Shown in pieces: positions 6,666 to 53,942 of a stretch of 54,756 nucleotides of DNA (its first letter is position 1; each line of letters starts with the position of its first letter). The stretch is from Promethearchaeota archaeon (GTDB lineage Archaea > Asgardarchaeota > Heimdallarchaeia > Hodarchaeales > Hodarchaeaceae), in the NCBI GenBank assembly GCA_048938105.1, contig JBHLMN010000029.1:1-54756 (forward strand), written 5' to 3'. Position numbers and translations under genes: made by a program. Under the pieces are notes generated by a model. The model searched no databases, was not told where the DNA came from, and was given only the letters and a program-made list of their open reading frames with translations.

Positions 6666-6785
6666 CCGAAACGCACAAACAGCGTACAGACATCAGACCG
6701 AATGCCCATACATTGAAGATTGACACTCATGAAGCTGCCTGGCGATAGTGTTTGCCAAAAAGCTTAACTTCCACAGTTTTTTAGA
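6666..6785 (-). repeat. near-complete 23S-trailer repeat
   Basis: cagcgtacagacatcagaccgaatgccc...gaagctgcctggcgatag...ttaacttccacagtttt. Confidence 0.85.
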
Positions 6786-6862
6786 AGGACTACTCCTTAA
6801 AGTGTTACGTTACATAGTGTCAAACAGAAAGAGAGAGAAAAAAAACAGAGATATCACTAAAG

Positions 6863-7345
6863 TTAACCAGCTACTGCTAAATATCTGTCTAAAACCCACC
6901 AGACAATAAAAAATACACCAAAAATTATCCAATCAATAATCCAGAAGAGGGGAATCGGGAAATCAATTTGAAACAGATCCCATAATGGGGTCCAGACTGG
7001 ATCACCGAATTTCCATGTGCCTTGGAAAAGTGCTTTAGTTAACCAATGGCCAATATCTTGAAAAAATTGGATTAAAAAAGCACCACCAATAGTCAATAAC
7101 CAATCCGTTTTCTCTCGGGTGAGGAATGGAACAATAGATAGCATCAAAAAGATAAAAAACGCGTAAAGCATCCAATAGAACGGAAAATTATGGAGTTCAT
7201 AGTCCAAATAATAAACAAATGCCTGAGCTTCAATTCCTCCAAGTAATAAGGCGATCAAACAAGCCCAAATGATAATTATGGCCTTATCAAATCTATCCAA
7301 GTCGATACGACGATTTTTCATTGCAGTTACACCAGATTTCAACAA
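6863..7345 (-). CDS. hypothetical membrane protein
   Basis: 160 aa (likely ATG start at 7321), 4 TM segments, Trp-rich. Confidence 0.65.
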   Translation of the reverse strand: MLKSGVTAMKNRRIDLDRFDKAIIIIWACLIALLLGGIEAQAFVYYLDYELHNFPFYWMLYAFFIFLMLSIVPFLTREKTDWLLTIGGAFLIQFFQDIGHWLTKALFQGTWKFGDPVWTPLWDLFQIDFPIPLFWIIDWIIFGVFFIVWWVLDRYLAVAG

Positions 7346-7520
7346 ATAGTTATCTGTTTAAAACAATTGTTCATAATTATAAGTGATTACTGCTGAAAAA
7401 AAGTGAAAAAAGAATAAAATCTAGTAAAAAACACATATTACATTTCCCCCAAGCCTCCTCAAAGGATGATTATCAACGAAGGTTCTTTTATCCAATATGT
7501 GGAGGAATTTTAAGGTGAAA

Positions 7521-7638
7521 TAAAGGAGGGGAGATTGGGGGATCGTGAAACTTGGAAAAAGCTATTTCTCAAAATAAAAAAAGATGTATAGACATCAGAT
7601 CGTTTGCTTCAATTTCAGGGTATTTGGTCTGATATCTG
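7521..7638. repeat. ~95-bp repeat shared with 27301-27394, ending in module A followed by an inverted module A
   Basis: taaaggaggggagattgggggatcgtgaaacttggaaaaagct...gacatcaga..gtttgcttcaatttcag; 7607-7638 is the reverse complement of module A. Confidence 0.8.
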
Positions 7639-7726
7639 AAGATTTATTTCGTTTTTCTGGAATTTCAGAAGAGTAGGGACAAAGTACTACCAACACCTAC
7701 TATACTCCCAGTTTTTATTCAAGAAA

Positions 7727-8533
7727 TCAAGAATTAAGATCTTTATGTTTATCCAAGAATTCTTCATAGTCTCTTAGCATAAGATGATAACTATCATACT
7801 TCAGTTCTAAATTCATATATAATGCTGTTTGTTTTATAAGCCAGTTATTCCATTTAGTGACTTCAGGATGAGCTAAATCGAGATGTAGAGCGGTATCGAT
7901 CAACTCGTTCTGCTTTATAGCAGTGTCAGTTCCCACTGATAAAGGTAATCGAAAAAGTTCGAGGAGTGATTGAGCACCTTGTATATCTTGTAAAGAAAAT
8001 CTAGGAGTCTCCTCAGTGTTAGGGAAGACTTCCTCAAGAAGACACTGGAGCTCGGTATATTCCTTAAGTTGGAAGTGACACTTTGCAAGAAGTAACTTGA
8101 CATCTAATTTCCTTTCAGGGGTAAGTGGGCCACTTTGTTGTAGACGTGTAAGCCGATTAATCGCAGACCGATAGTTACCAATGTTAAATTCTGTATTAGC
8201 TCTGCTAAAGTCATCACCGGAAAAAAATTTTCCAACAGGTTTGAGATAACTTGTTCGAATAGAAGAGTTCTCCAAACTTTTCGAAGAGAACCTATTAGGA
8301 TCTGGGGAATACTGATACAAAAAAACGAACATTCCAAAACTAAATAGTAATCCTAGGATACCAGCCACAAAGACAGCTACCATAAACATATCTCCGTTTG
8401 GAGTTGGACTAATCCATTCCATTCCAAGCATTGTTAAACCGAAATCTATCATGGATGGTAGGGATGCTACTATCAAGGTTCCACTAATAAAGGCTAAAAT
8501 GAAAGTACAAATGTAAAGCTTTAAACTACGCAT
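7727..8533 (-). CDS. membrane-anchored protein with TPR-like helices
   Basis: 2 N-terminal TMs then ANTEFNIGNYRSAI...LLLAKCHFQLKEY TPR-like segment. Confidence 0.6.
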   Translation of the reverse strand: MRSLKLYICTFILAFISGTLIVASLPSMIDFGLTMLGMEWISPTPNGDMFMVAVFVAGILGLLFSFGMFVFLYQYSPDPNRFSSKSLENSSIRTSYLKPVGKFFSGDDFSRANTEFNIGNYRSAINRLTRLQQSGPLTPERKLDVKLLLAKCHFQLKEYTELQCLLEEVFPNTEETPRFSLQDIQGAQSLLELFRLPLSVGTDTAIKQNELIDTALHLDLAHPEVTKWNNWLIKQTALYMNLELKYDSYHLMLRDYEEFLDKHKDLNS

Positions 8534-8564
8534 TTTTCACTCTACTCAACAATTTAATCTTCTC

Positions 8565-8637
8565 CCGAACATAGAACCACAGCGTACAGACATCAGACCG
8601 CTCTTGCTTTAATTGAGGCTAACAACTTTCTAAGCTA
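8565..8637 (-). repeat. 23S-trailer repeat (A + degenerate B) overlapping the stop of 8630..9124
   Basis: tagaaccacagcgtacagacatcagaccg...aattgaggctaac. Confidence 0.8.
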
Positions 8638-9124
8638 TTTCCCTAAGCTTCTGTAAAATAACCCTAAGATCACTAAAATAATCAATCTGCTGATTTACAC
8701 CAGCTGATAGATAACCCTTCAGAGCTATCTGAACTGCTTCTTTCTGACTTATTAATGCTTTTGGGTGAAAGATAAATACAGAAGCATTCGGATTATGCTG
8801 AGAAAGGTGTTGTAGGGAGAGATCTAAAAAATATTTGGCTCGAGAAAGATCAGAGATGAGGATAGACTCTATAATGAAGACCATTGCTTTCACATAACTG
8901 AAAATCTCTTGCTGGACGAATTTTTCACTTTCAATTAATTCCAGAGATTCACTCTGACTCAAGGGGAATACCTTCTGTTGTTTCTTTCGTAACGATTCGA
9001 TCGGACTCAAGATTCGATTCAATAATTCAGAATTAGACTCGATCCTATCGTAATAAACCATCTTATTTGAAAATCCCAGAATAAGAATCCAATCTTCTAG
9101 AACTCCCATAATAATCGACTTCAT
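8630..9124 (-). CDS. degenerate Rag/Gtr-like small-GTPase-fold protein (no P-loop); paralog of 45735..46229
   Basis: IFSYVKAMVFII...AKYFLDLSLQHLSQHNPNASVFIF resembles the Rag-like core also seen in 16894..17472. Confidence 0.55.
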   Translation of the reverse strand: MKSIIMGVLEDWILILGFSNKMVYYDRIESNSELLNRILSPIESLRKKQQKVFPLSQSESLELIESEKFVQQEIFSYVKAMVFIIESILISDLSRAKYFLDLSLQHLSQHNPNASVFIFHPKALISQKEAVQIALKGYLSAGVNQQIDYFSDLRVILQKLREIA

Positions 9125-9165: not shown

Positions 9166-9702
9166 TCAGACATTTTCTTCTTCACATTTAAGTACTTTTA
9201 ATACCAAATCGTGTAAAATGGTTTCAATAGTTTCTTTATCCGTTGGTTTGATCTCGTAATAAGATAAACCCAGCTCTTCAGCTAATGCCATCCCCTCTCC
9301 TTTCATTATTGTTTCGGAATTAGTAATAAATCCAACTAAAGCAATAGGAAAGGCAGCTTGAGGATGATGTTTTTTTAATTCTCTATACCAATCTCTCACA
9401 GCGTGAAAGGAGTTTTGGTCAACCTTTTCAAATGTAATTATTGCAGCAGAAGCACCCCGAAAATAACTCGGACGGAGCTTATCAAAAAACTCCTGTCCTA
9501 TGGTATCTACGAGAATGAGGTTAACCTCATTGTTGTTTACTTTAATCTGTTTAGTTATAATATCAACTCCCAGAGTGGGTAAATAGTTCGTTGTAAACTT
9601 CCCTTCTGCAAATCTCCTGATAAGTGAGGTTTTAAACTCAGTAGATCCCAGAACGCAAATTTTCAATAATTCTTCATACATTCCTTTCTTCTGGACAGAC
9701 AT
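9166..9702 (-). CDS. Rab-like small GTPase with degenerate G1/G4
   Basis: KICVLG, YLPTLGVD, DTIGQEFFDKLRPSYFRGASAAIITF; G1 lacks GKS, no NKxD. Confidence 0.85.
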   Translation of the reverse strand: MSVQKKGMYEELLKICVLGSTEFKTSLIRRFAEGKFTTNYLPTLGVDIITKQIKVNNNEVNLILVDTIGQEFFDKLRPSYFRGASAAIITFEKVDQNSFHAVRDWYRELKKHHPQAAFPIALVGFITNSETIMKGEGMALAEELGLSYYEIKPTDKETIETILHDLVLKVLKCEEENV

Positions 9703-9783
9703 CAGACCGAACGCTCTGTAATTGAAGATTTACACTCCTTAAACTACCTGACGATAGTTCCGCTTAATTTCCACACGGTTAAC
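9693..9783 (-). repeat. near-complete 23S-trailer repeat supplying the ATG of 9166..9702
   Basis: ggacagacatcagaccgaacg...ctgacgatagttccgcttaatttccacacggtta. Confidence 0.9.
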
Positions 9784-9805
9784 ACATTTCAGTATAACTC
9801 ATTTT

Positions 9806-10480
9806 TCATATTATATTGTTAATCTCTTTTAAAACCTCTTCGAGAGACTTCCCAGTTAATTCTTTATAGCGCCTGCCAACAATTTCAAGAGATGTCTTTA
9901 AATAGGTTAAATATTGTTGCTTTTCTGCTTCCGATCGAATTAATCGACCATCATAAAGATTTTTTCTCTCTAGTGATTCAATCACGCGTAGTCGTTTAAA
10001 TATCTCGTCTTTGAGAGAAGTAATGACTTCTTTCTTACTCAAACGAGATGGTTTCACCTCAGTCGTGAGAGATTCAATACTAACTTTACTCACGCCTTCG
10101 ATTTTCGCCAGTTCATATGTTAGCTGCTCTTGAGAGATTCTCAAGTCAGAAAGATCGATGTAAACCTCATAAGTACAACGATCTTGCATGAAACACACCC
10201 CTGTGCTATAAAGGGTTCTTGTTTTGTACCTGATTAAAATTATACCAAACTCTTGTAAAAAATCGGGAGACAATTCACCAATTTCTATAGTAGCCTTGAG
10301 AACGTCAGGACTTCGGGCAGGAATGATTTGAATGACTTTGGTCGAGGGAGTAAGGATCATCAAAGCATACTTTACCCCTCCATAGATGTCATCCTTAATG
10401 GGGAGTGCTACAGGATATTTCCCCAGAAGGTCAAAGGGTTCATGAAGCTGAATCATTTTTGCGATGGTAAGAGGAAACAT
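9806..10480 (-). CDS. hypothetical protein with probable ACT-like domain and C-terminal helical region
   Basis: LKATIEIGELSPDFLQE...YEVYID...LAKIEGVSKVSIE beta-alpha-beta pattern. Confidence 0.5.
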   Translation of the reverse strand: MFPLTIAKMIQLHEPFDLLGKYPVALPIKDDIYGGVKYALMILTPSTKVIQIIPARSPDVLKATIEIGELSPDFLQEFGIILIRYKTRTLYSTGVCFMQDRCTYEVYIDLSDLRISQEQLTYELAKIEGVSKVSIESLTTEVKPSRLSKKEVITSLKDEIFKRLRVIESLERKNLYDGRLIRSEAEKQQYLTYLKTSLEIVGRRYKELTGKSLEEVLKEINNII

Positions 10481-10616
10481 TATTCACCATCCGCTTTCTG
10501 TAATGTCATTGATTCCACAAAGAGAGCATTTCATTATCAAAAAGGATGTTTAAACTTCAGAGATTATATTTGAACAATGAATTAGCATATCACCTTAAAT
10601 ATCCTATCTATGTGTT

Positions 10617-10749
10617 CCGAAAATGGAAAAATAGCGGACAGACATCAGACCGAACGCCTTGATATTGAAATAAACGATTCTTTAAACTACATGACGATAG
10701 ATTTTTGGAAAAATCTTAATTTCCACAGTTTTTCTTAAAACTAGCCCTT
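10617..10749 (-). repeat. near-complete 23S-trailer repeat
   Basis: gcggacagacatcagaccgaacgcc...tgacgatagatttttggaaaaatcttaatttccacagtttttcttaaaactagccctt. Confidence 0.9.
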
Positions 10750-11818: not shown

Positions 11819-12373
11819 TCAGTTATCAGAATCTTGGTTTTTTAGTACAACCTCTAAAATCGCGAAATTGCGTTGATGAAGCAGGACTTGAGCTCCAGGA
11901 ACGAGGAGGTCACGAGGAATGGAGGAGTCAACAACAACCGCAAATAACGGACCAGTACTGGATTTTACGATTGCTTTGCCACTCTCGAGTAGTGAATGGA
12001 TCGTGCCAACAAATAAGGGTGGTTGGCGTAATTTGATTAACTCTACTTTGAGATTATCTCTTTCTTCTTCAAATTTATTCCGTTGGACTTCAAGTAATGC
12101 ACGTTCCGTTTCTAATGCACGGATTCTCTTTTCCATGGTACGGGTATAAGAGTCCTCAAACTCTGAAATATCTGGAAGGCTCGAAACAGCAAACATAAGG
12201 CAGGCTTTAATATCCTCGACGGTGACCGAGGGAGAGTACTTTTCCATAATGTCTTCAAAAGACTTTCGTTCAGCAAGTAACTGGAGGATGGCTGTTACCG
12301 TAATACGAGTGCCTCGAATATGCGGTTGACCATCGCGGATATTAGGATCAATGACTATGCGATCTAATGACAT
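11819..12373 (-). CDS. DUF433-domain protein fused to the coiled-coil/OB N-domain of proteasome-activating nucleotidase (no AAA domain)
   Basis: RIVIDPNIRDGQPHIRGTRITV...TVEDIKACL (DUF433); ELIKLRQPPLFVGTI...AIVKSSTGPLFAV...LVPGAQVLLHQRNFAILEV (PAN N-domain); probable start MSLD at 12373. Confidence 0.8.
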   Translation of the reverse strand: MSLDRIVIDPNIRDGQPHIRGTRITVTAILQLLAERKSFEDIMEKYSPSVTVEDIKACLMFAVSSLPDISEFEDSYTRTMEKRIRALETERALLEVQRNKFEEERDNLKVELIKLRQPPLFVGTIHSLLESGKAIVKSSTGPLFAVVVDSSIPRDLLVPGAQVLLHQRNFAILEVVLKNQDSDN

Positions 12374-12447
12374 TTTCAATCCCCATCTGAAGTAGGGGAT
12401 CAGGTCATTTACCATTATAAATAATTCTCTTTCTCTGAAAGCCCATT

Positions 12448-12578
12448 AAAACGTAAAAAAACATATAGAAGTCAGACCGATTGCCCTCTCCTTGAAAATA
12501 GTTGAAATTATTGACTCCTGAAGCCCCCTGACGATAGCGTGTGGGAAAAAGTTTAATTTCCACACGGTTAGCCCTTGT
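12448..12578 (-). repeat. near-complete 23S-trailer repeat (insertion variant)
   Basis: tcagaccgattgccct...ttgaaattattgactcctgaagccccctgacgatag...ttaatttccacacggttagcccttgt. Confidence 0.9.
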
Positions 12579-28081: not shown

Positions 28082-28082
28082 G

Positions 28083-41403: not shown

Positions 41404-41446
41404 CCGAAACGCACAAACAGCGTACAAACATCAGACCGACTCCCCT
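41404..41446 (-). repeat. module A of the 23S-trailer repeat supplying the stop of 41431..41967
   Basis: gaaacgcacaaacagcgtacaaacatcagaccgactcccct. Confidence 0.9.
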
Positions 41447-41990: not shown

Positions 41991-42103
41991 CGAAACGCAA
42001 GAACAGCGTACAGACATCAGACCAAACGCCCACACATTGAAGATAATTGAAATAATTGACTCCTAAAGCCACCTGACGATAGATCCACTGAATTTCCACA
42101 CAC
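41991..42103 (-). repeat. near-complete 23S-trailer repeat (insertion variant)
   Basis: cagcgtacagacatcagacc...gactcctaaagccacctgacgatag...aatttccacac. Confidence 0.9.
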
Positions 42104-42126
42104 TAATTTTTTTTTGCTAATAGCTT

Positions 42127-42658: not shown

Positions 42659-42747
42659 CCGAAAAGCAAGAACAGCGTACAGACATCAGACCGAACGCCC
42701 TCACATTGAAGATAATTGAAATTATTGCCTCCTGAAGCCATCTGACA
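42659..42747 (-). repeat. 23S-trailer repeat (A+B, insertion variant)
   Basis: cagcgtacagacatcagaccgaacgccctcacattgaagataattgaaattattgcctcctgaagccatctgac. Confidence 0.9.
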
Positions 42748-42851
42748 AAAGGAATTTTCCTAGAAATTCATTATTTTGGAATTCTATACCTTGCTATTGG
42801 TCAGTATTTTCATTTATAAATAAGATTAAATAGGATAAAACTAGTGAATAA

Positions 42852-43547: not shown

Positions 43548-43646
43548 AACTGAAGCTAACGACTCCTTAAGCCAACTGACGATATTTTTCTAAAAATACT
43601 TAATTTCCACAGTTTTCTTAAAATTAGCCCGTGTGCGATTAGTAGG
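43530..43646 (-). repeat. near-complete 23S-trailer repeat with 23S end (D)
   Basis: tcagaccgaaagtcctgaaactgaagctaacgactcc...ttaatttccacag...ttagcccgtgtgcgattagt. Confidence 0.9.
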
Positions 43647-43711
43647 AAAGGATCATACAACCATAATATTTTTAATACTGTACTACATGTATATACATAA
43701 GGGGTGTTATA

Positions 43712-43969
43712 ATGGCTAATATCAGCGTACGCGTAGATGCAAGGATGAAGAAAGAAATGGAGCGCTTGAAGCAAGTAAATTGGAGTGAAGTGATCAGAGT
43801 AGCGATAAAAGAGCGCCTCGATCAGGAAAAACAAAAAAATCTTGCAAAAGCAGTTTTAATTAACGAAAAAATCCGTAGAAAAGCCCCAAGCGGATATGAC
43901 AGTACAAAGATCATTCGAGAATGGAGAGATCGGAGAAGTCAGAGCACTGAAAGATCGACAGGAGGGTGA
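43712..43969 (+). CDS. vapB: VapB-type antitoxin (RHH)
   Basis: ISVRVDARMKKEM...VNWSEVIRVAI; GTGA overlap with the PIN gene. Confidence 0.8.
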   Translation: MANISVRVDARMKKEMERLKQVNWSEVIRVAIKERLDQEKQKNLAKAVLINEKIRRKAPSGYDSTKIIREWRDRRSQSTERSTGG

Positions 43970-44424
43970 AACAGATACAAAAAATAGTCGTGGATGCAAG
44001 TCTAGTGGTAAAGTGGTTCATTAGCGAAAAATACAGTAATCTAGCTCTAGAAATTAGAGACCATTTTGTTGATGGGCAAATAGAGTTGTATGCGCCTAAT
44101 TTATTGCATTATGAGGTTCTGAATGCACTAAAATACAGTAATTTATTCTCTCGAGAGAACCTAGCTGATGCGGTCACCTCATTAGAAAATTATGGGATTA
44201 TTCAATTACCACTAAATGGGGAATATGCACAAAAAACAATGCATTTAGCAGTGGATCATAACATCTCCATCTATGATGCAGCATATGTGAGTTTAACCGA
44301 TGTCATGGGAATTTGCGCATATTCAGCAGATAAGAAATTAGTGGATACAGTGCATAAAGACTATGGAAAGTCTTTCTTTTTCATTACAACCCTAGAGGAG
44401 AAGAATGAAAAACCTGACGCCTAA
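43966..44424 (+). CDS. vapC: VapC PIN-domain toxin
   Basis: VVDASLVVKWF, YEVLNAL, SIYDAAYV, SADKKL. Confidence 0.9.
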   Translation: MKQIQKIVVDASLVVKWFISEKYSNLALEIRDHFVDGQIELYAPNLLHYEVLNALKYSNLFSRENLADAVTSLENYGIIQLPLNGEYAQKTMHLAVDHNISIYDAAYVSLTDVMGICAYSADKKLVDTVHKDYGKSFFFITTLEEKNEKPDA

Positions 44425-44477
44425 AAAGAATAATTTCCACAAATTTTGAAAAAATAAGCCCTTGTGCGATTAATGGG
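44413..44477 (-). repeat. partial 23S-trailer repeat (C+D)
   Basis: cctgacg...taatttccacaaattttgaaaaaataagcccttgtgcgatta. Confidence 0.8.
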
Positions 44478-44613
44478 AGGCCTGTTATCAAAAGTAATAT
44501 TACTAGCAACTCTTATTAGTTTTCAATCTCACAATGTTGTAATAATTTTAGTCAGCTGGATAAAACAAAAGAGAAAAGGAGATTGTTAATACGAATAAAA
44601 AGGGGAAAATCAA

Positions 44614-45582
44614 GTGAAATTATTCAAACTATCACGAGCTTTATCCACAACAACATGGTTATCTTTGATATTTTCATGTTTAATCCTTTCTTCGATTGCT
44701 GTAAATAGCGACAGTCGAAGCTGGAATGTAGGAAAAACCTATTCCTATAAAGGATTAACAGAAGTAAAGGAAGATGGAGAACATCATCAAAGAGAAGAAA
44801 AGTTTCAGTTTCGGATTGAGGAGATCAAAGAAAAAACAATTGTCACGTATGTTGATATGCTTACTTCAAAGGGAAGGTATAATCGCACACTTGAATTTCA
44901 GAATGATATTGGTTTCTTTAGAGGGGTGCGGCCATGCGAACTGAAAGTCCTCCCAGCTGACTGTGTAACCCCTCCCTTCCCTGGAATAGTTTACACTGAT
45001 ATTCTCTTGAGGTATGGTATAGATTCTGATATATATGGTATATATGATATGCCCATGCCTTTATTTATAAATCCGGAATGGGATCTGATCAATTCATATC
45101 TGAAAAATATTGGATTCAACCCAGATACGTATATATACCGATCTCAGACAGACTATCAGACCAAGGTGACTTTGGGTGAATTCCTTAATCAGGCAAGCTC
45201 ATACGAAATTATGGGAAAAACGAATATCACAGAGGCCTTAGATCTTTTCACTAATTCAACTCGGGAATGGTGGTGGGAGTTTCATTTTAACAACATTGTA
45301 CGAGTACGAAAGCAAGGTGCCCCAATCCATGCAGATCAACCCAGGTACAAGACCTATGACCTGTCAGTGAATATCAAATATTCAGAAGGAGGGATCCTAG
45401 AGACATTTCAAGCTGAGAGGGGTTATAGTTATGAGAATGAAAGTTTCTTCTCTTTCTCCAAAGACTTTACAATAGATCAACCCTCACTAGGTATCCCAGG
45501 ATTTGATTTTTTCAGTGTCACAATGGCTGTGCTTCTTACTACAGGATTAATAGTTCAAAGAAGAAGAAGATCTCTTTATTAA
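44614..45582 (+). CDS. secreted/cell-surface protein with PGF-like C-terminal anchor
   Basis: Signal peptide; IPGF-TM-RRRR tail. Confidence 0.75.
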   Translation: MKLFKLSRALSTTTWLSLIFSCLILSSIAVNSDSRSWNVGKTYSYKGLTEVKEDGEHHQREEKFQFRIEEIKEKTIVTYVDMLTSKGRYNRTLEFQNDIGFFRGVRPCELKVLPADCVTPPFPGIVYTDILLRYGIDSDIYGIYDMPMPLFINPEWDLINSYLKNIGFNPDTYIYRSQTDYQTKVTLGEFLNQASSYEIMGKTNITEALDLFTNSTREWWWEFHFNNIVRVRKQGAPIHADQPRYKTYDLSVNIKYSEGGILETFQAERGYSYENESFFSFSKDFTIDQPSLGIPGFDFFSVTMAVLLTTGLIVQRRRRSLY

Positions 45583-45742
45583 GAAAATTAGCCCTTGTGC
45601 GATTAGTAGGATCTAGGAGGAAGTTTTTTCACATGAGAAATTAAGAGCGATTTTAGAAAATTAATATCCTCTGAAACGCAACAACAGCAGACAGAAATCA
45701 GACCGCTCCTGCTTTAATTGAAGCTAACAACATTTTAAGCTA
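45583..45742 (-). repeat. two partial 23S-trailer repeats (D at 45583-45610; A+degenerate B at 45672-45742)
   Basis: aaattagcccttgtgcgattagt; cagcagacagaaatcagaccg...aattgaagctaac. Confidence 0.8.
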
Positions 45743-46229
45743 TTTCCCTAAGCTTTTGTAAAATTTCTTTAACATTACTGAAATAATCAATCTGCTGAGT
45801 TACACCCGTTGATAGATAGCCTTTCAGAGTTTTCTGAATTACCTCTTTCTGACTTATTGATACCTGATTTGCTTTTGGGTGAAAGATAAAAACAGAAGCA
45901 TTCGGACTATACTGAGAAAGGCATTGTAGGGAGAGATCTAAACAATATTTTGCTCGAGAAAGATCGGAGATGATGATTGACTCTATAATGAAGACTAATG
46001 CTTTCACATAACTAAAAATCTCTCGTTTAACAAATTTCTCACTTTCAAGCAATTCCAGAGATTCACTATGACTTAATGGATAGAGCTTCCTTCTTAATAA
46101 GTCGATCCGTCTCAAGATCCGATTTATTAATTCAGAATTAGCCTCGATCCTATCGTAATAAACCATCTTTTCTGAAAATCCCAGAATAAGAATTCTATCT
46201 TCTTTAACTCCCATAACAATCAGCTTCAT
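45735..46229 (-). CDS. degenerate Rag/Gtr-like fold protein; paralog of 8630..9124
   Basis: Very similar sequence and same repeat context. Confidence 0.6.
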   Translation of the reverse strand: MKLIVMGVKEDRILILGFSEKMVYYDRIEANSELINRILRRIDLLRRKLYPLSHSESLELLESEKFVKREIFSYVKALVFIIESIIISDLSRAKYCLDLSLQCLSQYSPNASVFIFHPKANQVSISQKEVIQKTLKGYLSTGVTQQIDYFSNVKEILQKLREIA

Positions 46230-46234
46230 GGTTC

Positions 46235-46358
46235 CCGAAAATAACGGAACAGCGTACAGACATCAGACTGAATGCCCTGAAATTGAAAATAATTGAAATT
46301 ATTGACTCCTTAAGCTATCTGACGATAGGACTACTTAATTTCCACAGTATTTTAAAAC
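46235..46358 (-). repeat. near-complete 23S-trailer repeat attached to a 23S fragment
   Basis: cagcgtacagacatcagactgaatgccctg...gacgataggactacttaatttccacag. Confidence 0.95.
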
Positions 46359-46678
46359 TAGCCCTTGTGCGATTAGTGGCCGCTCGCTGAGCATGTCGGT
46401 CGAAACCTCCACGCTTGCATGACGGCTCTATCAACGGGATCTTCTATCCCAGCACTCGTTCACTCGCTCACGGTTACCGTCGCCAGCCCCCGTGTCATAC
46501 TGACGCGAGCAAAGCGGATCTGTCTTTTCGAGGGGCGCTTCGTACTTAGATGCATTCAGCACTTATCGCGTGGCGGTCGGGCGATACCCTTCCGGATAAC
46601 CCGTAGACTTGAGGCGCCTACATCCCGTTCCTCTTGTAATGAGAGCGTGTTCCTCTCACAGATCCAACACGTCCTATA
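46359..46678 (-). pseudogene. 23S rRNA 3'-terminal fragment (~320 nt), decayed
   Basis: Aligns to 53943-54270; 7-nt deletion and a mutated sarcin-ricin loop; ends at cgtcctata. Confidence 0.95.
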
Positions 46679-46684: not shown

Positions 46685-47563
46685 TTAACTTACTGTCAAA
46701 CTTTCCAAACTCGGATAAATTTGTTGTCCTTCAATGTATCTTTCGTGGAAGTCCGTTGGAACAAAAATATTCCATCTTTCATCACGATACACTTTCTCAA
46801 GTACATTACGATTTACTAAATATACAGGAGAACCATCATTAACCCAATCTCGGAGTTCATTTAAAAGATCCATGGAATTGGACAGTGTTCCAACAGATGA
46901 AAAGACTTCAAGTAGGTATCCAACTCTTCCAACTAATGATTTCTTCTTGAAAAGATTTAATTCCAACAATTCAATGACCTCATTGAGATCATTCGGCCTG
47001 AATTCCATGGTTAGTAAATACAGTGCACGAATCATTTCAGCCCAACCTCCAACAAGTTGAGGTCGATTGATGATTTCAATCAGAGTTCTAGCTGGGGAGC
47101 TTACAATGACTTCTTCTTCTTGATATTTCACCTTCCGCAGCCCATAGATGAAATCACTAGACATTGTGGCATTAATAGTATATTTAGGGTTACTTTCAGG
47201 CAAATTAAATGAGCTAAAGTAATCTTGCTTTTGTACAGATACAATATAACTAGAATAGATAACTGGAGCTGCTCCCCACATCTCTAATGCTGATGTGTAA
47301 CCAAGGTAGTAAGGATCACGGAGCCGTGACGCCATAATGATCATATCAGGCAATGAATCAGGATTTTCAACATCAACAATTGAATATAAACCTTTTCGAT
47401 GTCGAAGGATGTGACCATGCTGCAATAGGTAACGTAGATAAGTTTTATATAAATAACGGCTATTATCGATTCCTAATTGGTCTTTAGCAAATCGTTGTAG
47501 CTCTTTTACGGTCACAGATTTTCTTTTTTGGATATACGATAGTAATACTAACAAATTTTTCAT
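46685..47563 (-). CDS. AbiEi-like type IV TA antitoxin / wHTH regulator
   Basis: N-terminal wHTH (GHILRHRKGLYSI), YLGYTSALEMWG, SSPARTLIE, RVGYLLE, DERWNI. Confidence 0.8.
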   Translation of the reverse strand: MKNLLVLLSYIQKRKSVTVKELQRFAKDQLGIDNSRYLYKTYLRYLLQHGHILRHRKGLYSIVDVENPDSLPDMIIMASRLRDPYYLGYTSALEMWGAAPVIYSSYIVSVQKQDYFSSFNLPESNPKYTINATMSSDFIYGLRKVKYQEEEVIVSSPARTLIEIINRPQLVGGWAEMIRALYLLTMEFRPNDLNEVIELLELNLFKKKSLVGRVGYLLEVFSSVGTLSNSMDLLNELRDWVNDGSPVYLVNRNVLEKVYRDERWNIFVPTDFHERYIEGQQIYPSLESLTVS

Positions 47564-47670
47564 TTATTGCACTCAGTTAAATTAATATCCAATATCTTTA
47601 AAAAGTTTTACCTTGTACTGCAACAATCAAAAATATCAAATTGAATATGACCTTAAATTTTCAATAATAT

Positions 47671-48612
47671 TTGGAACTATCTTTAATGAGACTAAGTATG
47701 AAATTAGAAAATGAAGGATATAATAACGCAATAATTCAGAAAGTATATCGAATAGCTGATGTATTAGAGTTAATCAGCAAGAATTATTTTTTGAAAAATC
47801 GTTTGGCTTTTACTGGTGGCACTGCTTTAAATTTTGTCATTTTTCCAAAAATTGAAAGACTTTCTGTTGATTTAGATTTTGATTTTCGTGAAATTGATTC
47901 AAAAAATGACTGGGGAAAAACAAGGGATATGGTTGATTCCAATATAAAAGGGATTTTGAGAGATCTAGAGTATGAAGATGATGACATCAGGATTGATGCA
48001 AAATATCCTCTAACACGCTTTATAGTGAAATATGAGCTGAGAACATCATTTAACATTGAAATAGGGTATTTAAATCGATATTCACTTTTTACTTCAGATG
48101 AAACTAAGAATTTTATTCATCCGAAGACTGGAAAAGCGTTTAAAATACTTATTCCAAGAATAGAAGAAATTTCAGCAGGAAAGTGTTCAGCATTAATTTC
48201 ACGGAGAATTCCTAGAGATCTCTTTGACACAGCAATAATCGCCAAACTACAATTTAGTAGAAAATTGCTGCGAAAAGCTCTAATATTGAAAAATATGATG
48301 AATCTAAGCTATAATATTACTACTCTTAATTTTTCGACTCATCTCGGGAATATAAGACTTGATGATAACCTTAAAGTTGTATTAGGGGATTTTTTTTCAA
48401 AGGAAACCTTTAGAAATTATCGGAAAACAGCTATCGATTTCTTGAATCAGTTGCAGATGGAATTTACAGAGAAGGAAAAGGATTGTCTTTCAGCCTTTAT
48501 AAATGACCAGGAATTGAATATTGGTTTATTAGGAAAGAGAGAGATGTTCCATCCACAAATTGCCAAGCATCCTAATATTCTTTGGTCTTTAGAAAAAATG
48601 AAAGGAACTTAA
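47671..48612 (+). CDS. AbiEii-family nucleotidyltransferase toxin
   Basis: LAFTGGTALN...RLSVDLDF, EEISAGKCSALISRRIPRDLFD. Confidence 0.9.
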   Translation: MELSLMRLSMKLENEGYNNAIIQKVYRIADVLELISKNYFLKNRLAFTGGTALNFVIFPKIERLSVDLDFDFREIDSKNDWGKTRDMVDSNIKGILRDLEYEDDDIRIDAKYPLTRFIVKYELRTSFNIEIGYLNRYSLFTSDETKNFIHPKTGKAFKILIPRIEEISAGKCSALISRRIPRDLFDTAIIAKLQFSRKLLRKALILKNMMNLSYNITTLNFSTHLGNIRLDDNLKVVLGDFFSKETFRNYRKTAIDFLNQLQMEFTEKEKDCLSAFINDQELNIGLLGKREMFHPQIAKHPNILWSLEKMKGT

Positions 48613-48652: not shown

Positions 48653-49192
48653 CTAATCCCTGTCCCAACACGCGAGAGTTCGGATTATGTTTTGCACAAC
48701 TTTCCGAGCTAAATTGTGAAAAATTCCCTCAATGGTTGCTTTATCGGTGGGTGTGGTCTCATAATAAGGAACATTCAGCTCCTCGGCTAAACCTTGACCT
48801 TCAAACGATGTTATTTCCTCTGAGTCGGAAATAAATCCGACTAAAGCAATAGGAAAGGTGGCTTGGGGAAGATGTTTTTTTAATTCGTTAAACCAATCTT
48901 TCACATTGTGAAAGGAGTTTCTGTTAACCTTTTCAAACGTAATAATTGCAGCAGAAGCACCACGAAAATAACTCGAACGGAGCTTGCCAAAAAACTCCTG
49001 TCCTATGGTATCTACAAGAACTAGGTGAACATTGAAGTCGTTAACTTTAATCTGTTTAGTTGTAATGTCAACTCCCAGAGTAGGCAAATGACTTGTTGTA
49101 AATTTGCCTCCAACAAATGTATTAACCATTTTTGTTTTCAACTCCCGAGCTGATCCCATAATGCAGATTTTTATAAAATACTCATCAGGCAT
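48653..49192 (-). CDS. Rab-like small GTPase with chimeric C-terminus
   Basis: HLPTLGVD, DTIGQEFFGKLRSSYFRGASAAII; tail QNIIRTLACW matches 39824-39855. Confidence 0.85.
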   Translation of the reverse strand: MPDEYFIKICIMGSARELKTKMVNTFVGGKFTTSHLPTLGVDITTKQIKVNDFNVHLVLVDTIGQEFFGKLRSSYFRGASAAIITFEKVNRNSFHNVKDWFNELKKHLPQATFPIALVGFISDSEEITSFEGQGLAEELNVPYYETTPTDKATIEGIFHNLARKVVQNIIRTLACWDRD

Positions 49193-49286
49193 TTATTTAT
49201 CCCCACACTTCCATCTTCTCTAACGGGTTCCACTTTTAATAGATTATTAAATTGTTATTGTGAGATTCCTCCGATCCACGCAATAA

Positions 49287-49310
49287 CACACAGACACCAG
49301 ACCGACTGCC
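49287..49310 (-). repeat. partial 23S-trailer repeat (module A)
   Basis: cacagacaccagaccgactgccc. Confidence 0.6.
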
Positions 49311-49501
49311 CGGAAACCGAATCTCCTTGGAAAAATTGTTTTATTTTCGGAAAAAAAATGAAATACAGGATCGTTAATTCAAAATTAGATACTTTCATAA
49401 TAATGATTAGTGTAAGTAAAAAGATACATCCTGGGAATAATATAAATCGTAATATACTGAAAGGAAGAAAAAATCCAGTCCTAGCCAAAATGTATGGAAC
49501 T

Positions 49502-50706: not shown

Positions 50707-50801
50707 CCAGACATCAGACCGAACGCCCTGTAATTGAAGCTAACGACTCCTGAAGCTACCTGACGATAGGACTACTTAATTTCCACACGGTTAGCCCTTG
50801 T
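50707..50801 (-). repeat. near-complete 23S-trailer repeat
   Basis: cagacatcagaccgaacgccctg...ctgacgataggactacttaatttccacacggttagcccttgt. Confidence 0.95.
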
Positions 50802-51041
50802 ACAGTTAGGCCAGGAGGACTTGGTTTGTTATTTTTTAACACTAATTAAAATATAAAAGGATAACCACGCACGAAATGAAGGGAAATGAAAACAAATGAA
50901 ATTATCCAGAAAAGGCATACAGACCTTAGAAAAAGCCATCCTTCCAGGTTTTGGGGTTTCTCTCTTCAAGCATTTCTGTACCTCGGTTGGCTTTATATAT
51001 TCAAAAAGGACATTCTTTGGACAAAGAAGGTAGAATAAAAA

Positions 51042-52016
51042 ATGCTGACTGAAGAAAAATACTGGGATCAACTAGCACCAACATGGGACAAGAAAATTAC
51101 TTCTAAACGAAATCCTCATTATCATTATTATCATACGATTGATTTGCTAGTCATTCAGCTTCTACAGGAAACCAAGGCAAAGAAAGCTCTAGAAATAGGC
51201 TGTGGTACGGCTGGCTGTGCCATTAATGTTCTCAAAACTCTGAAAAGGGACAATATTCATATAACGGGGATTGATATCTCAAAAAAGATGATAAAGTTTG
51301 GAAGAGAAAAGATCAAGAAGGCGAATCTAGAAGATAAAATTTCACTAGAGGTGGGGAATGCTACTGATCTTCCATTCCAAGATAAAGAATTTGATATGGT
51401 CTTTAGTCGAGGAGGAGTTCTCAGTTATACGACAGAACCTTCAAAACTTCTGCAACAAATAAAGAGAGTCCTTTGTATTGGAGGGGTTATTGGTTTAGAT
51501 GTAATTCCAAAACCTCCAAAAGGCAAAGATTATTACATTGGGAAAATTAGTGACAGTCCTTCTAATAAAGAAGTATTTCAGGTAGAGTCAACAAGTCTTA
51601 TGTATGAAGAATTCTATACAGATGGTTTTGTTCAAGTTGCTCGCAAATACCATGTAAAATCTGACGCAAATCTATACAATGAATTACAGACACTTTTTCA
51701 GAAACTCCCTTCGAGCTTACCAGGAATTCTACAACCTCCTATACATCTAAAAGAAGCCCAATTGATCAGTGATAGAAGTGTTACTCTCTATAGTATTAAT
51801 AAAATACAGGAAAAAATGACTGAAGTAGGATTTCAGATAACTGATGTCTATGGTACTGGATATGCAAATTTAATGAGCAAAAACAGCGAAATATTCGAAT
51901 TTGTTACTGCCAATCGTGATAAATTCAGTCGGATAGAAATAATTCTTCATAAAGTACTCTGTCTTGATTCTGCATCTATGCTTTTCATAACAGGAAAAAA
52001 ATGTGAGAAGTGTTAA
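51042..52016 (+). CDS. class I SAM-dependent methyltransferase
   Basis: ALEIGCGTAG, GIDISKKMI, GNATDLPFQDKEFD, RVLCIGG. Confidence 0.9.
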   Translation: MLTEEKYWDQLAPTWDKKITSKRNPHYHYYHTIDLLVIQLLQETKAKKALEIGCGTAGCAINVLKTLKRDNIHITGIDISKKMIKFGREKIKKANLEDKISLEVGNATDLPFQDKEFDMVFSRGGVLSYTTEPSKLLQQIKRVLCIGGVIGLDVIPKPPKGKDYYIGKISDSPSNKEVFQVESTSLMYEEFYTDGFVQVARKYHVKSDANLYNELQTLFQKLPSSLPGILQPPIHLKEAQLISDRSVTLYSINKIQEKMTEVGFQITDVYGTGYANLMSKNSEIFEFVTANRDKFSRIEIILHKVLCLDSASMLFITGKKCEKC

Positions 52017-52051
52017 GTTCAAGCATAAAAAGAATCTTTGAAAATAATCCT

Positions 52052-52178
52052 CTGAAACGCTAGAAAAAAAGCGTATAGACATCAGACCGAACGCCCTGAC
52101 ATTGAAGATAATTGAGAGTATTGACTCCTGAAGCCAACTGACGATAAATTTTAGGAAAAATCTTAATTTCCACAATTT
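52052..52178 (-). repeat. near-complete 23S-trailer repeat (insertion variant)
   Basis: gcgtatagacatcagaccgaacgccctg...ttgactcctgaagccaactgacgata...ttaatttccacaa. Confidence 0.95.
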
Positions 52179-52196
52179 GTAAAAAAGGAGCTACAA

Positions 52197-52799
52197 TTAA
52201 GTTTGGCCAGTTTTTATAGCTAATACTCTTGCCGCTAAATCCTCAAAGATTTTCGCAATAGTTTCTTTGTCAGTTAGTTTGGTTTCATAATAGAAGAACT
52301 TCAACTCCTCGGCTAAATTCTGTCCCTCTAAGGTTGTTATTTCCTCTGAGTTGGTGATGAAACCAATTAAAAAAATAGGAATAACAACATCTGAGGATTC
52401 ATATTCTTCTACTTCTTCTTCTGGAAATAAGCGAGGATGTCTTCGCATTATCAGCAGTGATTTCGTTTTATTGGGTTTAAGGTGACGTTTAACTTCCATA
52501 TAGAAATCTTTAGCTGCTTTAAAGGAGTTCCTATCGCCCTTATCAAAAGTAATGATAGCAGCAGAAGCACCTTGATAGCTTGGTTGTTCTAAAGCATCTA
52601 CAAGAGCTAGTTTAACCTTATTGTTGTTTACTCTAATCTGTTTAGTTGTAATGTCAATTCCCAGAGTGGGTAAATAGTCTGTTGTAAATTTCTCTCCAGC
52701 AAAAGTGCGAACCATTCTTGTTTTTAACTCTCGAGCTGCCCCCATAATGCAGATTTTCATGAAATATTCATCAGGCATTGTCTTATTCCCACATATCAA
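52197..52799 (-). CDS. Rab-like small GTPase, degenerate, with internal insertion
   Basis: KICIMG, YLPTLGID, YQGASAAIITFD; likely start MPDEY at 52778. Confidence 0.85.
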   Translation of the reverse strand: MICGNKTMPDEYFMKICIMGAARELKTRMVRTFAGEKFTTDYLPTLGIDITTKQIRVNNNKVKLALVDALEQPSYQGASAAIITFDKGDRNSFKAAKDFYMEVKRHLKPNKTKSLLIMRRHPRLFPEEEVEEYESSDVVIPIFLIGFITNSEEITTLEGQNLAEELKFFYYETKLTDKETIAKIFEDLAARVLAIKTGQT

Positions 52800-52884
52800 C
52801 CTTCTCCAAATAATCAGACGATTAATATGTTACAATGTTTTTATATTTTGGGAAATTCAAAGCTAAAGTATTATTTTCCTCCCT

Positions 52885-53022
52885 CCGAAACAACGAAAAT
52901 AGCATACAGACATCAGACCGAGTGGTCGCTACTTGAAGCTAACGACTCCTTAAAGCTAACTGACGAAAGGATTACTCAATTTCCACAATTTTTGAGAAAA
53001 TTAGCCCGTGTGCGATTAGTGG
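52885..53022 (-). repeat. near-complete 23S-trailer repeat with 23S end (D)
   Basis: cagacatcagaccga...gaagctaacgactcc...aatttccacaatt...ttagcccgtgtgcgattagtgg. Confidence 0.95.
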
Positions 53023-53027
53023 GAGGA

Positions 53028-53702
53028 TTACTCATTATTTATTTGTAAGCTATTACCACAATGAATACAATATTTTTGATGAGCTTCATTCTTCGTTCCA
53101 CAATTAGTGCAAAAATGATAGGTAGAAGTAGCTGGGTGAGGAAGTGAATTATGATAAGAGGGTGATATTTGAGATATGTATGGATCAAGAGGAGCTTGTT
53201 GTTGCGATTGTTGATATAAACGCAATCTTTGTTGTTTATAGGTATTAATCAAAAAAATATAGCTATTTTGATTGGAAAAAACAATAATGGTAGAAACTAT
53301 AATCATCAAAGATGAAAAAGCTCCAAGAATAAGGCCTATTTCAAAATTTAATGGAATAGCGAATCCCATTTCTTGTATAGAATACTCATAATAATACTGA
53401 TATTGGAGGTACACTATAAACCATGAAAAAAGTACTGAAAGCGTACTTATTACTAAACACACCTTGGGATTTCCCCCAAGACTCCCATTGAGATTTATTC
53501 CAGCAATTAAGGAGAGTATTGCAGATAAAGCAAGGGGGCCCCAAACTAATAATCCTAAGTCAAATGCATTAAGAGAAATTGTAATTAAGAAAGTAACACT
53601 AAAATAAGGAAAAAGAGCACTTAATCCGATTCCTATCCCTCCAATGATGGCGAGAATACTCGCAGGACGTAATTTTCCTTTTGCATCCATGATATCTATC
53701 AA
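53028..53702 (-). CDS. membrane protein with C-terminal zinc ribbon
   Basis: 4 TMs, FCTNCG...YCIHCG. Confidence 0.75.
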   Translation of the reverse strand: MIDIMDAKGKLRPASILAIIGGIGIGLSALFPYFSVTFLITISLNAFDLGLLVWGPLALSAILSLIAGINLNGSLGGNPKVCLVISTLSVLFSWFIVYLQYQYYYEYSIQEMGFAIPLNFEIGLILGAFSSLMIIVSTIIVFSNQNSYIFLINTYKQQRLRLYQQSQQQAPLDPYISQISPSYHNSLPHPATSTYHFCTNCGTKNEAHQKYCIHCGNSLQINNE

Positions 53703-53842
53703 AATTTTTCCCTCTTACTTCTTACCTCCTATAAAAAAATAGGATTTTGTGGAAGAGGGCCTTTTTCTTCATAAAAAGCTTTGTGTAATTTCACAACCTT
53801 AATAAAAAAGCTCAAACATGTTTCGAAATCTCATCGCATAAA

Positions 53843-53942
53843 ATAGAACCACAACGGACAGACATCAGACCGAACGCCCTGAAATCGAAGCTACTGACTC
53901 CTTAAGCCAACTGACGATAGGTCCGCAAAATTTCCACACGGT
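53843..53942 (-). repeat. master copy: 3' trailer directly downstream of the 23S rRNA gene
   Basis: Contiguous with the 23S 3' end; contains modules A, B and C. Confidence 0.9.

Follow-up and report, generated by a model that had tools for sequence, protein, structure and literature searches.

Copies of the 23S rRNA gene end in the window

The window analysed here, 54,756 nucleotides from a member of the Hodarchaeales, is an entire contig that terminates in the 3' end of a 23S rRNA gene; the operon's other half lies on contig C9 (23S 5' part at 1-1448, 16S at 1695-3919). An iterated nhmmer profile search of the 5.85-Mb genome found 38 copies of a unit consisting of the final ~33 nt of 23S and a ~95-nt trailer. 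Thirty are located in the window, although this 54.8-kb contig makes up only 0.94% of the genome, five lie at the end of C18, and C42, C53 and C9 carry one each. The minus strand, which is the rRNA strand, carries 29 of the 30 window copies, and among the 107 further copies detected at 20 loci in 11 congeneric genomes, orientation is uniform inside every locus. The copies contain the last ~33 nt of 23S; two window copies extend to ~330 nt and comprise all of 23S domain VI. Frequent starting points of homology are ..CCACTAATCG and the 23S domain V/VI border (at least 10 genomes), and homology frequently ends within B1 or directly after GGTCTGATGTCTG; truncation at one or the other end is common among the window copies. 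We interpret the repeats as orphan 23S rRNA gene ends, each with 3' trailer sequence attached. Our literature search found no published description of the array. The window copies are listed below.

53840-53965, minus strand: resident ('master') copy, contiguous with LSU rRNA 53937-54756 (nhmmer 122.7 bits); block D (23S 3' end), spacer 1 ACCGT, block C GTGGAAAT, spacer 2 TTTGCGGAC, block B (CTATCGTCAG..GCTTAAGGAGTC), no insert, block A (TTCGGTCTGATGTCTG)
52889-53024, minus strand: orphan without insert, spacer 1 being palindrome ATTTTCTCAAAAATT and spacer 2 short (TGAGTAATC); followed by Ras-family gene 52197-52799
52062-52178, minus strand: orphan lacking D, with long spacer 2 (GATTTTTCCTAAAAT) and insert
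50708-50809, minus strand: orphan with ACCGT and short spacer 2 TAAGTAGTC, no insert; homology ends right after GGTCTGATGTCTG
46238-46678, minus strand: orphan 23S domain VI fragment (46359-46678), then repeat with decayed spacer 1 palindrome GTTTTAAAATACT, spacer 2 short (TAAGTAGTC) and insert
44430-44478, minus strand: partial copy with D, palindrome ATTTTTTCAAAATTT and C, ending near block B1
43529-43646, minus strand: orphan with palindrome ATTTTAAGAAAACT and long spacer 2 (GTATTTTTAGAAAA), no insert
42662-42756, minus strand: 5'-truncated copy beginning at B, with insert; upstream of Ras gene 42127-42624
41993-42106, minus strand: copy lacking D, with short spacer 2 TCAGTGGAT and insert; upstream of Ras gene 41431-41967
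40815-41449, minus strand: two copies of block A only (40815-40927, 41407-41449), flanking and overlapping the tandem Ras genes
39632-39693, minus strand: partial copy, C to B2, with long spacer 2 GATTTTTCCAAAAAT
37659-37767, minus strand: copy with insert, spacer 1 short and ACTGT-like, spacer 2 long (GTATCTTTAGAAAA); ends right after GGTCTGATGTCTG
36699-36768, minus strand: partial copy, C to B2, with long non-palindromic spacer 2
31747-31845, minus strand: copy with ACCGT, short spacer 2 TAAGTAGTC and insert
27629-28081, minus strand: orphan 23S domain VI fragment (27751-28081), then repeat with palindrome GTTTTAAGAAAATT and long spacer 2, no insert
25139-25239, minus strand: copy closest to the master, both spacers short and master-type; deletion in D; homology ends inside A
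21159-21223, minus strand: partial copy with D, palindrome GTTTAGAGAAAAACT, C and short spacer 2 TAAGCGGAA, ending inside B1
12450-12578, minus strand: copy with ACCGT, long spacer 2 and insert
10620-10749, minus strand: copy without insert, its palindrome of the GTTTTAAGAAAAACT type and its spacer 2 long (GATTTTTCCAAAAAT)
9693-9787, minus strand: copy without insert, with ACCGT and spacer 2 short (TAAGCGGAA); immediately followed by Ras gene 9166-9702
6669-6780, minus strand: copy with long spacer 2, no insert
2843-2902, minus strand: most distal copy in the window, with D, palindrome GTTTTAATAAAACT (identical in G015 L039) and C; ends inside B1
49281-49325, 45674-45767, 25777-25823, 21797-21918, 8568-8658 and 5233-5285, minus strand: other short or partial copies
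7600-7638, plus strand: inverted A fragment

Variable points and their combinations

The copies differ chiefly at three points: the 23S terminus (spacer 1), spacer 2 and the site of a 10-nt insert. Spacer 1 is either ACCGT or an AT-rich palindrome of 13-16 nt; of the 52 typed copies, 16 have the short form and 36 the palindrome. Spacer 2 is either 9 nt long or an AT-rich T-run/A-run form with a total length of 17-19 nt. Among the short forms, TTTGCGGAC occurs in the master and the copy at 25239, TAAGTAGTC in those at 50809, 46382 and 31845, and TAAGCGGAA in those at 9787 and 21223; the long form occurs in the copies at 10749, 39693, 52178, 27773, 43646 and 37767. A net insert of 10 nt, of the AATAATTTCAATTAT type, separates blocks B and A in seven copies (12450-12578, 31747-31845, 37659-37767, 41993-42106, 42662-42756, 46238-46382 and 52062-52178). 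These are the seven places at which the original prediction had seen an insertion between A and B. The spacer it had described as alternating between B and C corresponds to our spacer 2 read on the rRNA strand, in its short and T-run/A-run forms, and the C-D spacer it had given as acggt or a hairpin is spacer 1; both descriptions hold.

Particular, complex indel types combine freely, as had been claimed. TAAGTAGTC and GATTTTTCC-type spacer 2 are each found with and without the insert, and the GTTTTAAG-type palindrome and ACCGT are each found with both types of spacer 2, so that all four combinations are present in both cases. The same allele types are found again in other species of the genus, and identical palindromes are common to G000 and G015 or G011. 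Modules are also common to this genome and G011 (92%), G003 (84%) and G015 (85%), in differing array contexts. The repeat at 52889-53024 and its Ras gene match G003 L032:195-551 at 71%. Within this genome, the nearest neighbours of 10 of 12 copies are other copies of the same genome. A PHI test, one of the recombination tests that could answer the earlier proposal, was not significant when applied to substitutions (p 0.58 and 0.36); the case for recombination comes solely from the indel combinations. Since the palindromes may have several origins, a four-gamete argument from their presence or absence is weakened, and any crossover between spacer 1 and spacer 2 would be confined to ~12 nt, so that exchange there may call for short-patch conversion, or the spacers may have been replaced independently. 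The view that the copies are mosaics is thus supported by the recurrence of indel types in all combinations and across species but not by the substitutions.

Divergence does not follow distance from the resident gene. The copy most like the master, at 25139-25239, lies 28.7 kb away and is 94.9% identical over C to A, while the nearest copy (52889-53024, 0.9 kb away) is only 73.8% identical; identity and distance are uncorrelated (Spearman rho 0.05, p 0.89). Both the remote position of the closest copy, previously placed at 25141, and the lack of decay with distance from rrl are in agreement with what had been read from the sequence.

Predicted pairing with the rRNA spacers, and the orphan palindromes

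Cofolding of the ITS with the trailer yielded a predicted stem of ~45 bp, whose trailer side consists of spacer 2, block B and a CTTCGAT motif and whose partner is the ITS just upstream of 23S. Its centre is predicted to resemble a bulge-helix-bulge (BHB), with CGUC/GACG, a 3-nt trailer bulge and GACGA/UCGUC between the bulges; for G000 the prediction gives a leader bulge AA/AAA, helix GACG(A)/(U)CGUC and trailer bulge AGU, the bulges not being strictly 3-4-3. Block A is predicted to pair with a conserved element ~180 nt upstream of 16S, and a 16S-leader element complementary to it is found in both operons (C9, L057). The independent complete operon L057 gives the same predicted stem architecture. 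Both the stems and the BHB-like motif have been predicted from these two operons, whose leader sequences are nearly identical and so offer little covariation. Trailers of other families retain a B1-like TTCGTCAG. The conserved trailer blocks are accordingly predicted to be the 3' strands of two processing helices, with spacer 2 at the outermost 4-5 base pairs of the top helix and the insert in an internal loop between the B and A0 helices.

Archaeal pre-rRNA processing stems contain BHB motifs that are cut by EndA and joined by RtcB (PMC12918454). Like these, the resident trailer and the ITS would form a long stem with a central 4-5 bp helix between bulges on opposite strands. In contrast to them, only the trailer strand is multiplied in the array, where the top helix is gone in many orphans; no second copy of the ITS strand was detected anywhere in the genome.

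Both spacers are short in all five resident lineages recovered, a set that includes none of the closest relatives; the rRNA genes of most relatives are unassembled. Spacer 1 palindromes occur in 36 of 51 orphans versus 0 of 5 residents (Fisher p=0.004), in line with the earlier remark that hairpin-like segments are absent from the master; for the long form of spacer 2 the corresponding value is p 0.06. The palindrome stems have 27 different arms, with 192 Watson-Crick, one G-U and two A-C pairs. Mean stem length exceeded that of 1000 of 1000 shuffles for both spacers, even when the halves were shuffled separately. In many palindromes of G000, G003, G009, G011, G014 and G015, T4-T7 is followed by A4-A7, while several palindromes of G002, G013 and G019 lack any stretch of at least four T. 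Archaeal oligo-T terminators consist of ~5 or more T on the coding strand, where the transcript ends. The relation between palindromes and the orientation of neighbouring genes is a trend only (p 0.18 and 0.19).

The palindromes are predicted to delete the bases by which the resident trailer pairs with the ITS. Intact copies of the short type have predicted ITS pairing energies of -35 to -46 kcal/mol, and long-type copies, with one exception, of -20 to -32 kcal/mol, against a shuffled mean of -23 kcal/mol (Mann-Whitney p 0.003). Given that the palindromes occur in no recovered resident trailer and remove ITS-pairing bases, comparison of the sequences identifies them as a feature of orphan copies rather than as imports of the kind of resident trailer recovered. 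The short-spacer copies, which still fit the ITS of this genome, could be displaced or exchanged resident-type trailers. The proposal that the copies derive from trailers of several donor lineages may thus apply to the short types but does not extend to the palindromes, found in none of the five resident lineages. Comparison with the rrl trailers of relatives gave a divided result: in G003, the closest relative, TAAGTAGTC follows a piece of 23S domain VI whose structure is intact and which shares 96% identity with the 23S of this genome, but no short type exactly matches the four other residents.

Origin of the array and comparison with known systems

The reading we favour, with a probability of about 0.55, is that the array consists of orphan copies of the 23S end and trailer in which resident-type short alleles and orphan-only palindromes recombine freely, the copies serving as portable homology. 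Gene modules bearing one trailer copy each may be gained, lost and swapped through homologous recombination or short-patch gene conversion between trailer copies, which would generate mosaics. Alleles at the three points combine freely and recur in other species, sometimes beside homologous genes, and the palindrome stays palindromic while its sequence drifts. Orphan copies might be insulated or disarmed by their palindromes: a T-run with an A-run behind it could act as an oligo-T terminator readable on both strands, and loss of the top helix should keep an orphan from forming an EndA substrate with the ITS.

In tandem islands at the 3' ends of tRNA and tmRNA genes, serial integration leaves displaced 3' gene fragments as direct repeats, and each island has an integrase gene beside one of its att sites. 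The array is similar in that its target is the 3' end of a stable-RNA gene, its repeats are copies of the 3' part of that gene (the last ~33 nt of 23S; ~330 nt in two cases), and co-oriented partial copies split blocks of accessory genes; there, too, copies could differ because different elements brought or displaced different versions. A less probable reading is that the copies are site-specific integration scars, with an unseen integrase inserting elements serially at the 23S 3' end, the types being attL/attR hybrids of various attP and the palindromes binding sites for a recombinase or accessory protein. Strict co-orientation and recurrent boundaries would fit, as would the integration of MGEs beside the 16S gene in Heimdallarchaeum (PMC8813620). 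However, a six-frame search for tyrosine recombinases (PF00589, Phage_integrase) gave no match on C8 or C18 and only three in the whole genome (C14, C56, C45), and Pfam, PHROGs and NCBIfam detected no recombinase domain among the window ORFs. Unlike in tandem islands, the target is 23S plus trailer, the ~30 modules are often single genes, no integrase adjoins any array copy, end points are heterogeneous with no single core, and palindromes are present in orphans but not in the functional copy. With 27 arms, moreover, the palindromes vary too much in sequence to fit a sequence-specific binding site.

A rather improbable alternative is that the copies are shared promoter or 5'-UTR modules of small-GTPase and other genes, with the types as regulatory variants and the palindromes as RNA hairpins or promoter elements resembling a TATA box. 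A gene on the same strand comes after about 18 of 30 copies, in many cases a Ras or Gtr1/RagA-like one, and at several GTPase genes homology runs past block A to a GGAG motif and start codon. In at least eight orphans the A region is a better complement to the 16S leader than that of the master (best in the copy at 6669-6780, -47.4 versus -38.2 kcal/mol), and most copies with long spacer 2 allow pairing between block C and the U-rich stretch of that spacer. Nevertheless, ~10 copies adjoin the 3' ends of convergent genes, many are truncated at either end, and the RNAalifold consensus of 24 units reaches only -0.5 kcal/mol with 6 pairs. A covariation check, as had been suggested for the repeats, found none in the proposed GCGGAC/GTCCGC helix (p 0.34), and in the nearly all Watson-Crick stems G-U is not in excess over A-C, so there is no sign of strand-specific selection at the RNA level. 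It is a long shot that the orphan trailers are working RNA modules rather than scars. They would then sit in the 5' leaders of genes of the array, including many small GTPase genes, pair with the spacer RNAs that rRNA maturation sets free (the ITS and the element upstream of 16S) and couple array expression to the rate of rRNA synthesis; whether a copy could form an EndA-cleavable BHB in trans would depend on its spacer alleles, short or palindromic.

Plain decay, in which local duplicates of the present resident trailer mutated at random and palindromes are AT-biased chance, is very improbable: the 35% G+C of the genome, the within-genome nearest neighbours and the decayed look of both orphan 23S fragments (46359-46678, which relative to the resident has a 7-nt deletion and 4 pairs broken but no compensatory change; 27751-28081, with 2 compensatory and 7 one-sided pair-keeping changes and 5 broken pairs) would agree with it, but derived indels are common to subsets of copies and across species, palindromy far exceeds composition-matched shuffles, divergence is unrelated to distance and the fit to the 16S leader is better in many orphans than in the master.

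Among known organisms, eukaryotes have their closest relatives in the Asgard archaea, especially in the Hodarchaeales, and the gain and reshuffling of genes such as small GTPases bears on the origin of the large eukaryote-like Asgard gene sets. New here are the predicted original role of the repeated sequence as strands of rRNA processing helices and the apparent split of its spare copies into processing-competent and palindrome-bearing classes, both recombined and common to several species. Pairing bases, break points and alleles to compare provide handles for testing integrase-free gene stacking behind an rRNA operon.

Integron cassette arrays lie next to an IntI-type tyrosine recombinase gene; their cassettes are co-oriented and mostly promoterless, and their attC sites are imperfect inverted repeats that fold over their full length into a long hairpin. 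Clusters of attC without an integrase are termed CALINs. The array shares with these its small, mostly one-gene modules between co-oriented repeats and a repeat whose conserved feature is partly structural, its palindromes varying in sequence. It differs in that it has no IntI, the unit does not fold back as a whole but forms only local palindromes of 5-8 bp, and about one third of the modules are in opposite orientation (~10 of 30 neighbouring genes on the other strand); sequence conservation in its remaining blocks reflects their descent from the predicted rRNA processing helices. Integrons have been reported in Archaea (bioRxiv 10.1101/2022.02.06.479319). The pdif/Xer modules of Acinetobacter likewise comprise accessory genes between short sites of uniform orientation and have no dedicated integrase close by, although the site in the array is a ~130-nt rRNA-derived repeat and not an 11-6-11 Xer site.

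A co-oriented array of 23S rRNA tails

The window is one entire contig (C8) of a 5.85-Mb, 65-contig archaeal assembly with 35% G+C, a metagenome bin (genome G000) that is 99% complete with 7% contamination. Its 23S rRNA sequence is located as follows:

53937-54756, minus strand, 3' part of the 23S rRNA gene, at the high end of the window
27751-28081 and 46359-46678, extra pieces of the 23S 3' end, 93.6-94.2% identity

An iterated nhmmer search of G000, with a profile made from the 23S end and its trailer, returned 38 repeat copies: 30 on C8, five at the end of contig C18 and one each on contigs C42, C53 and C9. All but one of the C8 copies (29/30) lie in rRNA-strand orientation. Ordered together with the genes, the copies divide C8 into some 30 modules, 0.6-9 kb long. 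The window's genes are rich in small GTPases of the Ras, Arf and Gtr1/RagA types. A same-strand gene, often a GTPase, lies downstream of about 18 copies, and about 10 copies adjoin the 3' end of a convergent gene. A further 107 copies were found in 20 loci of 11 other genomes of the genus, with complete co-orientation within every locus. We found no published description of arrays of 23S tails in the literature searched. Long assembled contig pieces cross several repeats (for example 42682-46388 and 50771-53916) in the run that is the probable source and in another sample from that study, which is not fully independent support. Given the co-oriented copies at the end of C18 (135388-146075), the array may extend past position 1 of the window.

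Several features between the copies were also recorded. An ORF at 11819-12415 joins DUF433 to the OB domain known from proteasomal ATPases and lacks an ATPase domain. Two large minus-strand genes, 21925-24765 and 34714-36513, probably encode paralogous surface proteins; both have tandem repeats of 141 nt (47 codons), numbering 12-13 and 5-6 units, respectively, at 65-80% identity. The arms of a 35-nt inverted repeat (97% complementary) lie 8.8 kb apart at 39824-39858 and 48660-48694, connecting a wHTH gene with the end of a Ras gene. At 40815-41449, two tandem Ras-family ORFs (40839-41381 and 41431-41967) overlap at their 3' ends with block A of the repeat and the sequence that follows it; the repeat may thus encode the C-terminal tails of these genes.

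The repeat unit and the predicted rRNA processing stem

Read on the rRNA strand, the full unit begins with block D, which covers the final ~33 nt of 23S, and continues through spacer 1, block C (GTGGAAAT) and spacer 2 to block B (CTATCGTCAG, 3 nt, GCTTCAGGAGTC); a short stretch of variable sequence then leads to CTTCAAT and block A (TTCGGTCTGATGTCTG). The original prediction that copies fall into recurring allelic types was borne out. A 10-nt net insert of the AATAATTTCAATTAT type is present in exactly the seven copies for which it had been claimed; spacer 2 alternates among TTTGCGGAC, TAAGTAGTC, TAAGCGGAA and a 17-19-nt T-run/A-run form; and spacer 1 is either ACCGT or a 13-16-nt palindrome. 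One of the C18 copies shares this insert, and its spacer 1 palindrome matches that of copy 53024 exactly.

The rest of the rRNA operon lies on C9 (23S 5' part, 1-1448; ITS, the spacer between 16S and 23S, 1449-1694; 16S, 1695-3919). Since C9 starts with the operon's other half, C9 and C8 should join across ~1.2 kb of missing 23S. The C9 16S carries an insertion of ~750 nt between 2438 and 3188. When the final 110 nt of the ITS were cofolded with the resident trailer, a long stem between the two was predicted. In its top helix, trailer GCGG(A)CCUA, which spans the junction of spacer 2 and B, would pair with ITS UAGG(A)CCGC; in the next, trailer UCGUC would pair with GACGA, with a 2-3-nt bulge on the ITS strand. 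Beyond this helix come a 3-nt trailer bulge (AGU) and predicted helices of 11 bp (UGGCUUAAGGA) and 10 bp (GCUUCGAUUU). As modelled, the stem is bulge-helix-bulge-like and centred on block B1. The same fold was predicted for an independent complete metagenome operon (L057) despite its different trailer, and the TTCGTCAG motif is kept in trailers of other families. Block A, together with the sequence following it, is in addition the complement of a conserved element that lies ~180 nt upstream of 16S, in G000 as well as in L057; on C9, the element complementary to block A lies at ~4096-4124. Leader sequences are nearly invariant and covariation is therefore scarce, so that these helices stand as predictions. 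A long-range GCGGAC/GTCCGC helix within the master trailer was also predicted but rejected, as it lacked covariation (p 0.34) and ITS pairing explains it better. No second copy of the ITS strand occurs anywhere in G000, and hence only the trailer strand has been multiplied.

Palindromic segments of the orphan copies

The variable segments map to distinct parts of this stem. Spacer 1 coincides with the 23S terminus as annotated, spacer 2 is predicted to contribute the outermost 4-5 bp of the top helix, and the insert would fall in the internal loop that separates the two lower helices. Five resident trailers contiguous with 23S domain V were recovered (G000, G005/L052, L054, L057 and L059), most relatives having no assembled rRNA operon. 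The search pattern could admit the longer spacer state, but all five showed the short state at both spacers. By comparison, among orphan copies (those away from the working gene) the spacer 1 palindrome occurs in 36 of 51 (Fisher p 0.004) and a long spacer 2 in 33 of 70 (p 0.06). With this genome's ITS, predicted pairing was -35 to -46 kcal/mol for intact short-type copies and -24 kcal/mol for a copy cut off inside B1. Long-type copies reached, with one exception, -20 to -32 kcal/mol, values near the average of -23 for shuffled sequences (Mann-Whitney p 0.003). Pairing between block C and long spacer 2 exceeded that in shuffles modestly (4.5 versus 3.3 nt), and we give this no weight.

Stems of 4-8 bp were found in 32 of 36 spacer 1 palindromes, with 27 different 5' arms (for example ATTTTT, CTAAT, TTGTT, CTCTT, GTTTT and TTTCT types). 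Their pairs comprise 192 Watson-Crick pairs, 17 of them G-C, against one G-U and two A-C. Mean stem length was 5.2 bp versus 3.1-3.3 in shuffled sequences, a value reached by none of 1000 shuffles even when the halves were shuffled separately; spacer 2 palindromy likewise exceeded 1000/1000 shuffles. Altogether, these results indicate that complementarity is kept while sequence changes. The lack of a G-U excess gives no sign of selection on one RNA strand, and the pairing data would also fit either a constraint at the DNA level or correction of the palindrome from a template. Association of palindromes with neighbouring-gene orientation was limited to trends (p 0.18-0.19). The palindromes could be an orphan-specific adaptation, serving as insulator or terminator or disarming an EndA substrate.

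Mosaicism and proposed exchange between copies

We favour homologous exchange between trailer copies, which would produce mosaics, as the origin of the assorted alleles. The prediction that copies recombine with each other gained support from indels, whose specific types occur in all four combinations, but a PHI test on the 24 informative substitutions was not significant; the case for exchange thus rests on the indels. Spacer 2 TAAGTAGTC occurs with the insert in copies 46382 and 31845 and without it in 50809; the GATTTTTCC type with it in 52178 and without it in 27773 and 10749; and the GTATTTTTAG type with it in 37767 and without it in 43646. The GTTTTAAG-type palindrome is combined with five different spacer 2 types. 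Each specific indel type is unlikely to have arisen twice. Only ~12 nt separate spacer 1 from spacer 2, so the process may involve short-patch conversion or independent replacement rather than simple crossovers.

A site-specific recombinase may instead act at the repeats, as certain end points are found repeatedly (at the beginning of D, within B1 and following GGTCTGATGTCTG), but no such enzyme is encoded on C8 or C18 or recognisable among the window ORFs. Ten unannotated window ORFs gave no match in PHROGs and NCBIfam. The view that the copies are purely regulatory leaders is weakened by the convergent gene contexts, the truncated copies and the failure to find a conserved RNA fold for the whole unit. 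Plain decay from the master is contradicted by derived indels shared among copies and by the palindrome statistics; as predicted, there was no ordered decay with distance (identity to master versus distance, Spearman 0.05, p 0.89, n=10), and the copy closest to the master (25139-25239, 94.9% identity) lies 28.7 kb away, while the nearest is just 73.8% identical.

Exchange between trailer copies had been predicted to involve several donor lineages, a claim that stands in part. Displacement and exchange of resident-type trailers fit several observations, but these do not fit a source of the palindromes in foreign resident trailers of the sort recovered. Scans for resident rrl ends yielded one relevant record in genome contigs and four in metagenome contigs, too few for orphan-to-donor matching, and the nearest neighbours of G000 copies were other G000 copies in 10 of 12 cases. 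For at least eight orphan A regions, predicted pairing with the 16S leader is stronger than for the master (-42 to -47 versus -38 kcal/mol), which points to an ancestral trailer of this operon other than the present master. Longer orphan 23S fragments (27751-28081 and 46359-46678 in the window; loci L002, L003, L005-L008, L010 and L011) all start within ~10 nt of the domain V/VI border, in at least 10 genomes of the genus, and hence are whole copies of domain VI. The two G000 fragments show signs of decay when compared with the resident gene (0-2 compensatory changes, 4-5 broken pairs), whereas those of four congeners (G017, G012, G003 and G001) keep rRNA structure as well as true residents do (4-17 compensatory changes, 0-3 broken pairs). 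An AbiEi/AbiEii toxin-antitoxin pair (46685-48612) lies immediately upstream of the 23S fragment located at 46.4 kb; in G017 (L005), too, a 23S fragment adjoins this AbiEi 3' end, so the junction is common to two species.

Alleles and modules are likewise shared between genomes of the genus. GTTTTAATAAAACT is common to G000 and G015, ATTTTCTCAAAAATT-like forms to G000, G003, G011 and G015, and the insert is also found in G003. Modules recur in different array contexts: 6852-7482 in G011 (92%), 9995-10624 in G003 (84%) and 43664-44399 in G015 (85%), where homology stops beside the flanking repeats. When contigs of four DNA runs were aligned to the window, many joints appeared, each situated within repeats and with just 23-80 nt on the shorter side; these reflect other mosaic copies in the samples and do not prove excision or insertion. 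At 43664-44424 is a plus-strand two-gene PIN-domain module, 85% identical to one in G015 (L039), and a diverged allele of it is present in a second sediment sample (run X2).
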